The notes beneath the pieces are model-generated. The model was not told the origin of the DNA. It made no database searches and worked only from the letters and a program-made list of their open reading frames with translations. A stretch of 64,000 bases of DNA from Anabaena cylindrica PCC 7122 (GTDB lineage Bacteria; Cyanobacteriota; Cyanobacteriia; Cyanobacteriales; Nostocaceae). Positions 25,522 through 26,769 of this stretch are shown one piece after another. The position numbers and the translations under genes are program-made. The stretch lies in NCBI RefSeq assembly GCF_000317695.1, contig NC_019771.1:2463823-2527822 (forward strand), written 5' to 3'. Every line of letters begins with the position of its first letter. Position 1 is the stretch's first letter.

Positions 25522-25832
25522 TAGTATTTGATGTATCTTTATATGACTATATAAATTATATTGTCATATAACTGCTAAGTCATGCAGTTTGAGCGATCGC
25601 ACTTTCAGGGAGTAGGTACATATGTATATATACTCATAGAAATAATTTGTAGCTTATTGCTACAAAACACTAAGGATAAAAGCAAAAATAAGCCACGCTG
25701 ATTAAAGTGAAGCATTGATAAAAACAGCTTTTTTAGCAGGCAAGAAACCTGATTTAAGCCAAAAATAAGACACGCCTTAATTTTGCACCCAAGAGCCTTG
25801 TCTGGTAAGCCTTTGAGCAACAAGAGATTTAT

Positions 25833-26301
25833 ATACCCTGGTTGGAGTATAATTTCTTCGGTCCTACCAAGATTGCTGCATCTTTACGCGAAATTGCTTC
25901 TAAGTTTGACGCGAAAATCCAAGCAAATGCTGAGAAGGTAATTGCTAAGTACCAACCTACCATGGATGCGATCGTTTCTAAATATCGCCCCCGTTTGGAA
26001 GGTAAGACAGTTGCAATGATGGTTGGTGGTCTACGTCCTCGTCACGTTGTTCCCGCTTTCCAAGATTTAGGAATGAAGATGATTGGTACTGGTTATGAGT
26101 TCGCTCACAACGACGACTATAAACGTACTACCAACTACATCGAAAACGGAACTATCGTTTATGACGACGTTACCGCTTACGAATTTGAAGAATTCATCAA
26201 AGCATTGAAGCCAGACTTAGTTGCTTCTGGTGTGAAAGAGAAGTATGTATTCCAAAAAATGGGTCTTCCTTTCCGTCAAATGCACTCTTGGGATTACTCC
26301 G
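25833..26301 (+). CDS. nifD: nitrogenase MoFe protein alpha chain NifD, internal segment (interrupted on both sides)
   Basis: ...[26 protein letters not shown]...[19 protein letters not shown]...[15 protein letters not shown]...[17 protein letters not shown] matches roughly NifD residues 290-445. Homology starts abruptly at 25833, after a stop at 25806 and unrelated codons. It ends at the 11-bp repeat 26291-26301. Confidence 0.85.
26291..26301. repeat. XisA-type recombination site, left copy (GGATTACTCCG)
   Basis: Identical to the known 11-bp nifD-element repeat of Anabaena. It lies inside the NifD codons for HSWDYS. Confidence 0.8.
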
Positions 26302-26769
26302 AACCTGATTATGTTGGTGGAAAGGTGCGTTAATTTGATGTTTTTTGGTTGGGTAATTAAGAGAATTTGATTTTTAGACTAAATGTATTTAATTATGTTC
26401 TATAATAACATTGTTTGTTGGTAGCTGCAAGTAGTAAAAGTCTGATTTTTCAGGGTTTGAGGGAGTTGTTAATTTTTGATAGTTTCTGATTTGGTTATGT
26501 AGGATAACTTTTTGTGGGTTTGTTTTTTAGACTAAACTAGACTACGTTTAGGCAAAAAAAGGTTACTAATTCTTATGACAACATGATTAACTATATAAAA
26601 TATAGTTTTAATCAATGTAAAAAAACACAATTTTCTTGGTGATTATCTATTTTTTTGATAAGATAGAAATAATTTTGCTTTCCGAGAGGTCTATTCTTTA
26701 TGTCTTCGTTGGAATGGGAGAAAAATAGAAATTTTCTTGCATCAGGTTTGATAAATTTATACCTACCAA

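Follow-up and report, generated by a model that had tools for sequence, protein, structure and literature searches.

Introduction

The 11-kb nifD element of PCC 7120, with its recombinase XisA, encodes a tyrosine recombinase at one end, is bounded by short repeats in nifD and is excised as a circle in heterocysts. For Anabaena cylindrica PCC 7122, three elements listed by Hilton et al. (2016, PLoS One 11:e0156034) bear on the present locus. Element no. 5 interrupts nifD at nt 894, with the repeat TATACCCTG and the tyrosine recombinase Anacy_2118, and is 74,986 bp (74.986 kb) long (NC_019771 2414668-2489653). Element no. 4 interrupts nifD at nt 1357, with the repeat TACTCCG and the tyrosine recombinase Anacy_2214, and measures 15.19 kb (NC_019771 2490117-2505306). 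Element no. 1 lies in a primase P4 gene at position 1145, with the repeat AGTATATG and the serine recombinase Anacy_2120, located 413 bp from its end, and measures 59.225 kb (NC_019771 2477490-2418266). This primase P4 element has been treated as excised by a serine recombinase or a “phage integrase” (Hilton et al. 2016; Qiu et al. 2019, bioRxiv 10.1101/629832).

Deletion of the 5'-nifD element in heterocysts was reported from a genome sequencing contig and PCR (Qiu et al. 2019). The second nifD element of this genome, its site, its repeat, its recombinase and its heterocyst excision are therefore already published. In Calothrix sp. NIES-4101 (Plant Cell Physiol 2024, PMC11249958), nif genes with multiple elements each are reported to be restored in heterocyst development; that case has 13 fragments and inversions, and nifD of PCC 7122 involves two simple direct-repeat excisions.

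Results

nifD is interrupted twice in the window

We analyzed a 64,000-nt stretch of PCC 7122 DNA (hereafter the window; NC_019771.1, positions 2,463,823 to 2,527,822 of the forward strand). A preliminary description had placed an abrupt start of NifD homology at about 25833, preceded by a stop at 25806. Both frame reading and tblastn bore this out: in the frame 25776-26336 the homology sets in at 25833, at I299-P300-W301, just downstream of an in-frame stop at 25806-25808, and a 163-aa ORF matched Pfam Oxidored_nitro (3e-26). When the window was searched by tblastn with a full-length NifD query, three matches were obtained, namely a middle piece of nifD (~25833-26301, E 2e-102), its 3' end (41482-41628), and nifE, a paralogue with 34% identity to NifD (44463-45704). 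NifD residues 1-298 had no match anywhere in the window in this search and neither did a NifH fragment, in agreement with the earlier statement that coding sequence for nifH and the 5' part of nifD is absent from 1-25832. Because the window encodes neither NifD 1-298 nor NifH, and because nifD is cut again downstream in the xisA-type manner, there are two interruptions of nifD here. The middle segment occupies 25841..26301 on the plus strand (nt 903-1363 of the restored gene, NifD ~302-454) and the 3' end, from ...GPYHGYDGF... through the stop codon, occupies 41492..41631, also on the plus strand. Downstream, nifK, nifE, nifN, nifX, nifW, hesA, hesB and fdxH are all intact and score above the NCBIfam cut-offs, so that the remainder of the operon is as first described.

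The classical xisA-type 3'-nifD element, 15,190 bp in length (26295..41484, plus strand), separates the middle and 3' pieces, with TACTCCG at 26295-26301 and 41485-41491 and an XisA-like gene at 39946-41250 on the minus strand. Its size, repeat and GC content (0.3498) are those of Hilton's element no. 4. The spacings in the window reproduce the published coordinates exactly: 464 bp from the end of no. 5 to the start of no. 4, 15,190 bp for no. 4 itself, and 12,163 bp from the end of no. 1 to the end of no. 5. Since all of these match the published NC_019771 coordinates, the elements in the window are Hilton's nos. 5, 4 and 1. A second element in nifD, which the preliminary description had offered as the likeliest explanation, was thus the correct one, but it was not new (Hilton et al. 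2016; Qiu et al. 2019). The accompanying remark that multi-element nifD genes are known in heterocystous cyanobacteria holds for PCC 7122 itself, in elements 4 and 5 (Hilton et al. 2016).

The 5' element agrees in repeat, position, recombinase and length with no. 5 of PCC 7122, a representative of the nt-894/895 variant (Hilton et al. 2016). It differs from the PCC 7120 element, a member of whose type lies 464 bp downstream in the window (26295-41484), in its position (nt 894 vs nt 1357), in its core (TATACCCTG vs TACTCCG), in its unrelated cargo, and in having its recombinase gene at the nifH-proximal end, oriented as nifD.

The recombination site and the left end of the 5'-nifD element

The right direct-repeat copy, an attR-like crossover core TATACCCTG, lies at 25832..25840 on the plus strand, where it overlaps nifD codons G298-W301, and it occurs once in the whole window. 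The core spans nt 894-902 of the rejoined 1,503-nt nifD. The break is therefore at G298-W301 and not at about residue 290, as first proposed, and the junction repeat guessed at that time, ATTTATATACCCTGG, contains the true core, which itself is only TATACCCTG.

The left end of the element was read in AP018166.1 (cited as A. cylindrica PCC 7122), in CP186034.1 and in the read assemblies DRR315817 and SRR18735215. The order there is a nifH 3' fragment, a 309-aa nifD 5' ORF, a 467-aa recombinase, a 1056-aa primase, and then the genes of window positions 15093-25521. The 309-aa ORF terminates in ...HMEEAYGIP, followed by junk residues, and the nifD 5' half has ...GGTATACCCTG as its end. At the right junction, in the window, GAGATTTATATACCCTG is followed by GTTGGAGTATAAT; at the left junction, in the same-strain loci, GAAGCTTATGGTATACCCTG is followed by TCTAAAATATGAG, and TATACCCTG is common to the two. 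The left copy of TATACCCTG is present in five same-strain loci, among them SRR3926592, one contig of which (L036) carries the 3' part of nifH, the 5' part of nifD, the XisAC recombinase and the C-terminal part of the primase. For NC_019771 itself the left copy is known only from Hilton et al. (2016), the window holding the right end.

Together with the published entry, the same-strain contigs confirmed what the preliminary description had predicted beyond the window: an excision element that runs past the window start, and, on looking upstream, the nifD 5' half, a matching repeat and an XisA/XisC-type recombinase, encoded outside the window at the element's left end. In another assembly, scaffold JAAMUW010000155.1, whose primase is intact, joins the two ends of the element, right to left (TATACCCTGNNTATACCCTG). 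This is a paired-read link and not read-through sequence, and it is compatible with an excised circle.

The recombinase

The recombinase gene (Anacy_2118) starts ~95 bp past the stop of the 309-aa nifD 5' ORF (L032), ~130 bp inside the left end of the element, outside the window and in the same orientation as nifD. Its 467-aa product has the precomputed Pfam domains XisAC_N and XisAC_2nd and is 48% identical both to the XisA-like protein of the window and to “Excisase A” of PCC 7120 (P0114). The family call rests on these precomputed matches and on pairwise identity, as the local Pfam and NCBIfam sets miss the XisAC domains; the local Pfam search returned Phage_integrase alone, below threshold. 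Orthologues were found in Anabaena lutea, Sphaerospermopsis, Anabaena PCC 7108, Cylindrospermum, Nostoc and Cronbergia (63-86% identity) and in Rivularia (54-57%). We infer that the 467-aa protein is the excisase of the 5'-nifD element.

The layout is shared by PCC 7108 and C. stagnale PCC 7417: the gene after their nifD 5' half encodes a recombinase with 76-83% identity to Anacy_2118, and both keep the left arm GGTAT(A/T)CCCTG followed at the junction by T..A.AATATGA, which corresponds to Hilton's “position 895” variant. The cargo differs: PCC 7108 has a 1036-aa protein at the position of the primase, and PCC 7417 has other genes there.

The native element

Of the basic 5'-nifD element, the right-hand 12,169 bp are native DNA in the window (13663..25831, minus strand); they contain a protein with collagen repeats, some 15 small ORFs of unknown function and a P4-type primase that is truncated. 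AP018166.1 and CP186034.1, in which the element is uninterrupted, match this region at 100% identity except for a VNTR. The element measures ~15.8-16.0 kb in the sister assemblies, and the basic element is 15,761 bp.

An ORF of 387 codons (13658..14821, minus strand) encodes the N-terminal part of the primase, with DUF3854, D5_N and P4-family primase/helicase matches in Pfam, NCBIfam and PHROG. The protein has 1056 aa when intact (sister loci L013 and L014). Here it is cut at 13662/13663, after codon 385, and the last two codons of the ORF are encoded by a transposon.

A prophage reading of the basic element is not supported, as no capsid, terminase, portal or tail genes were recognised in it. 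Nine of its ORFs had no match in PHROG, and the 847-aa protein matches tail-fibre families through its collagen repeats only. A tblastn comparison with 50,697 phage records, made for the 293-aa protein as the sole ORF, gave no match, and the primase alone had distant relatives in phages or satellites.

A transposon in the primase gene

The primase is interrupted in the window by a 3,795-bp transposon copy (9868..13662, plus strand) with TGT...ACA termini and ~113-bp inverted ends that contain repeated CCAGGATTAAATGCAAC motifs. It encodes a serine resolvase (10281-10850, Pfam 1e-44), a 553-aa putative DDE transposase (10840-12501; sub-threshold IS481/IS21 scores and no Pfam family) and an AAA ATPase (12443-13461; AAA_22 and AAA_16 matches) that is frameshifted in the window copy. 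Matches to the transposon end were also seen in genome contigs of Cuspidothrix, A. lutea, Anabaena sp. WFMT, A. cylindrica UHCC 0172 and a MAG.

Transposons of the Tn552/Tn5053 type encode a DDE transposase, an ATPase and a serine resolvase, and they move through cointegrate intermediates. Going by this general description, the element here is like them in its ~113-bp inverted ends, TGT...ACA tips and 6-bp duplication, and would be so too in its gene set and in two direct copies that bracket a fused replicon. Unlike them, it has a DDE protein with sub-threshold IS481/IS21 scores that falls in no Pfam family, and no TniQ/TnsD-like targeting gene was seen in the transposon; we therefore regard it as a candidate member.

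The uninterrupted target in the primase gene reads ...CCTCCATATACTCATTAG (L032), with the empty site CCATATACTCATT. At the left transposon/primase junction ...CCATATACT is followed by TGTAGCG (L036 and L037). At the right one, in the window, GCTACA is followed by TATACTCATTAG or, in the extended read, by TATACTCATT, and SRR3926592 has both transposon/primase junctions, the one that the window contains and the one that it predicts. The insertion is flanked on both sides by the 6-bp sequence TATACT, a target-site duplication of which the right copy is at 13663..13668 (plus strand). Two bases that happen to coincide extend this duplication to the 8-bp repeat AGTATATG of Hilton et al. (2016), which occurs in the window at 13661-13668 as its reverse complement, CATATACT.

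A probable plasmid insertion between two transposon copies

The DNA on the far side of the transposon is plasmid-derived (1..9867, plus strand). It encodes a 198-aa protein, cyanase, a 1035-aa DUF3854 replication-type protein and HNH endonucleases, and it includes a 16-gene tRNA array at 7283-9861. Positions 1-8870 are 100% identical to CP186040.1 (55,395 bp), whose record ends at window position 8870 and whose start carries the match on through the transposon. AP018171.1 (54,068 bp) is identical to the window over the part compared, 8001-9867. The two are separate records in two complete sister assemblies, that is, free replicons. CP186040.1 carries ParA/ParD and psbA, and both records encode a Mob_Pre relaxase. 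Each of these plasmids has one transposon copy after the tRNA array, with the left flank GATACG as in the window, and the plasmid flank on the other side of the transposon is ACTAGAATGGGG. PLSDB, a collection that does not hold this strain's plasmids, contained no close plasmid (best match 87% identity over 15% of the query).

This block, which extends over window positions 1-13668, is the primase P4 element (Hilton et al. 2016, no. 1; Qiu et al. 2019), with the same boundary repeat, the same 59,225 bp and a serine recombinase at 413 bp. The sequence here gives it transposon ends, a 6-bp duplication and the content of a free plasmid. Read in this way, these features show the primase P4 element to be a putative transposon/plasmid insertion and not a site-specific excision element. 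The “unusual” cargo of the preliminary description is real in so far as the plasmid and tRNA-array DNA is present, but it is not native to the element, being a nested insertion in the primase gene. Among the nt-894/895 elements compared, only the PCC 7122 reference has the nested 59-kb block. Neither the plasmid identity of the block nor its transposon ends are described in Hilton et al. (2016) or Qiu et al. (2019).

The lengths add up: 3,598 bp of left native DNA, an insert of 59,219 bp and 12,169 bp of right native DNA make 74,986 bp, and subtracting one transposon from the insert leaves 55,424 bp, within 29 bp of the 55,395-bp CP186040.1. In the window the right transposon copy lies between plasmid DNA and primase DNA; no contig or read crosses a copy, and L036 and L037 contain the chromosomal junction of the left one. 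From the transposon end in the window to the resolvase is 413 bp, the distance also given for Anacy_2120 at the other boundary (Hilton et al. 2016), and this equal spacing suggests that the two copies are direct repeats. Direct copies that bracket a plasmid are the architecture of an unresolved replicative-transposition cointegrate. The plasmid would accordingly be physically integrated, having probably arrived through replicative transposition. Two other routes were rejected: the two DUF3854 genes share only 31% identity over 189 aa, and the plasmid and element parts have no DNA similarity except the transposon through which homologous recombination could have occurred.

It could be argued instead that the join between plasmid and transposon is a path taken by the assembly, that the primase has a simple 3.8-kb insertion, and that the 55-kb plasmid exists separately, in which case the element would measure ~19.6 kb and exclude window positions 1-9867. 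The transposon is indeed repeated, with at least six other near-identical copies in the sister assemblies (at least seven in all), all short-read contigs end at it, and a simple insertion would give the same two junction sequences as a cointegrate. In addition, the plasmid is separate in AP018171.1 and CP186040.1, the primase is intact in two long-read-era sister assemblies, and the resolvase gene is intact, so that a true cointegrate should resolve. Against this, NC_019771 is a finished sequence, the length of the block fits plasmid plus transposon plus duplication within 29 bp, and an identical resolvase lies 413 bp inside the other boundary (Hilton et al. 2016). The window copy also has four differences that are private with respect to the six other copies, three transitions and the 1-bp deletion responsible for the ATPase frameshift, which suggests that it was sequenced individually, with its own flanks. 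On balance we consider an assembly path a tenable but rather doubtful account. We put at about even odds that the 59-kb block is a complete mobilizable plasmid (ParA/ParD, Mob relaxase, tRNA array, psbA, cynS), fused into the nifD element via cointegration in the PCC 7122/ATCC 29414 lineage and free in sister cultures.

Resolvase action on two direct copies would leave one transposon copy behind, and we know of no reaction of such transposons by which the whole block would be lost precisely. Because a copy would remain, resolution does not explain the finding that the 59,225-bp block is lost precisely and with enrichment in heterocysts, where intact primase reached 67% vs 0.03% in vegetative cells (Qiu et al. 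2019).

Restoration of nifD

Joining the 5' part to 25841-26301 and 41492-41631 in silico gave a gene of 1,503 bp that encodes a NifD of 500 aa, the length of the restored nifD in Qiu et al. (2019). Over its full length the joined protein is colinear with NifD chains of solved structure (E 1e-255), and it is continuous over both joins.

A decayed nifD whose 5' half had been lost from the genome would look the same in the window, which by itself has no 5' half, and the preliminary description had named such an absence as evidence against an excision element. The 5' half is present: it ends in the same 9-bp core and adjoins the recombinase in every same-strain assembly examined. Moreover, the three pieces join as a perfect 500-aa NifD, and intact nifD has been amplified and sequenced from A. 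cylindrica PCC 7122, a known diazotroph (Qiu et al. 2019). A pseudogene is accordingly very improbable. We give equally little credence to a chance or paralogous match to a nifE- or vnfD-like fragment, for although the window's nifE has 34% identity to NifD, the fragment has ~88% identity over the junction to solved cyanobacterial-type NifD, and it fills exactly the gap between the other two pieces.

Editing of nifD has been quantified by qPCR. At the nt-894 site 6.5% of nifD was edited in heterocysts, compared with 0.05-0.06% in vegetative cells, and within heterocysts the 3' site reached 71% vs 6.5% at nt 894 (Qiu et al. 2019).

Discussion

We conclude, with a probability of roughly 90%, that the core at 25832-25840 is where the known 5'-nifD element, which is excised in development, recombines at its right end, and that this element carries a cointegrate-like nested block. 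The heterocyst excision is taken from the literature, and the junctions, the restoration of the frame and the recombinase family come from the DNA analyzed here.

In vegetative cells nifD lies in three pieces separated by the two elements. In the mechanism that we propose for differentiating heterocysts, Anacy_2118 would recombine the two TATACCCTG cores and free the 5' element as a circle, whose junction is expected to read ...GAGATTTATATACCCTGTCTAAAATATGAG... with a single copy of the core. The rejoined nifD would read GGT ATA CCC TG at the left of the join and G TTG GAG at the right (G-I-P-W-L-E), and the classical XisA element (26295-41484) would leave likewise, at TACTCCG. In this genome record the 15,761-bp basic element is enlarged to 74,986 bp by the nested 59,225-bp block in its primase gene, in which a whole 55.4-kb mobilizable plasmid would lie between two direct copies of the resolvase/DDE-transposase/ATPase transposon.

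The finding of a second element, as stated in the preliminary description, matters little, since the element and its site, repeat, recombinase and heterocyst excision are published for this very genome. What changes is how the region is read. The native element is a 15.8-kb unit of recombinase, primase and unknown ORFs, and the cargo of plasmid genes and tRNA array is read as a plasmid insertion linked to a transposon, one that varies between culture-collection sublines of a single strain. This rereading affects published counts of “genes deleted in heterocysts”, and it questions the identical serine recombinases of this genome as developmental excisases. If the plasmid fusion is true, a developmentally excised element would have served as a landing pad that ties the chromosomal residence of a plasmid to cell fate.

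Boundaries of the 59,225-bp block

The 59,225-bp "primase P4 element", made up of plasmid-derived DNA and the 3,795-bp transposon, has been classed in two papers as a developmental excision element, with a serine recombinase or a "phage integrase" (Anacy_2120) proposed to remove it (Hilton et al. 2016; Qiu et al. 2019). We found that this block is bounded by the ends of a transposon, accompanied by a target duplication (window 13661-13668), an arrangement that is unaccounted for by the published recombinase-excision mechanism.

The transposon copy on the free plasmid lacks a matching target duplication of its own, its flanks being GATACG and ACTAGA (locus L018 from AP018171.1, positions 9588 and 13383). 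In AP018167.1, TCTAAG is the left flank of one transposon copy and the right flank of another. This pattern suggests that flanks have been swapped between transposon copies by recombination.

We also identified a 15.5-kb scaffold, JAAMUW010000155.1 (loci L015 and L033), that is circularly permuted relative to the basic 5'-nifD element and broken within the collagen VNTR. At about 13320-13345 the two ends of the basic element are joined as TATACCCTGNNTATACCCTG, and the primase gene is intact. This scaffold, from an independent assembly, looks like an excised circle of the basic element.

Gene content of the plasmid-derived DNA and the nif elements

The plasmid-derived DNA carries the cyanase gene cynS (window 966-1406, + strand), and a psbA (Photo_RC) copy lies on the same plasmid beyond the window (locus L001, 3983-5065); this is a mobilizable plasmid with both metabolic and photosynthetic genes. 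It also carries a 16-gene tRNA array (window 7283-9861, + strand) with HNH endonuclease genes on either side, one of whose tRNAs was called with a 4-base anticodon (window 9784-9861). Nostoc PCC 7120 plasmid NC_003273.1 and many other Nostocales plasmids carry arrays with approximately 85% similarity to this one. A tRNA-Lys(TTT) and tRNA-Ile(TAT) pair lies within the classical xisA-type 3'-nifD element (window 33191-33341, - strand).

The basic element also has a collagen-repeat gene (window 22119-24662, - strand; repeats near 23371-23511 and 23925-24098) whose repeat number differs among sublines of a single strain. The protein is 847 aa in the window, 875 aa in JACJRP010000079.1 and 919 aa in AP018166.1, while in CP186034.1 the gene is split (506 + 449 aa).

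Upstream of the window, nifH is likewise split, into 146-aa and 137-aa pieces (locus L032, 2214-8840, AP018166.1), by an element of ~5.7 kb that encodes a separate XisAC recombinase of 475 aa as well as an ISL3 transposase, in agreement with the published 5,736-bp nifH1 element.

Variation and distribution of the transposon

Compared with six other copies, the window transposon has three transitions and a 1-bp deletion (window 11711, 12026, 12362 and 13046), the deletion splitting the ATPase gene into 229 + 135 aa versus 323 aa. These private differences may reflect either genuine divergence or mistakes made in finishing the sequence.

Sequences identical to the transposon end are present in other Nostocales, namely Cuspidothrix issatschenkoi, Anabaena lutea FACHB-196, Anabaena sp. 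WFMT, A. cylindrica UHCC 0172 and a Nostocales MAG (loci L025-L030). Plasmids of Tolypothrix, Calothrix and Nostoc carry transposon copies at 82-87% identity. From these matches, the transposon at window 9868-13662 is evidently widespread across the Nostocales.
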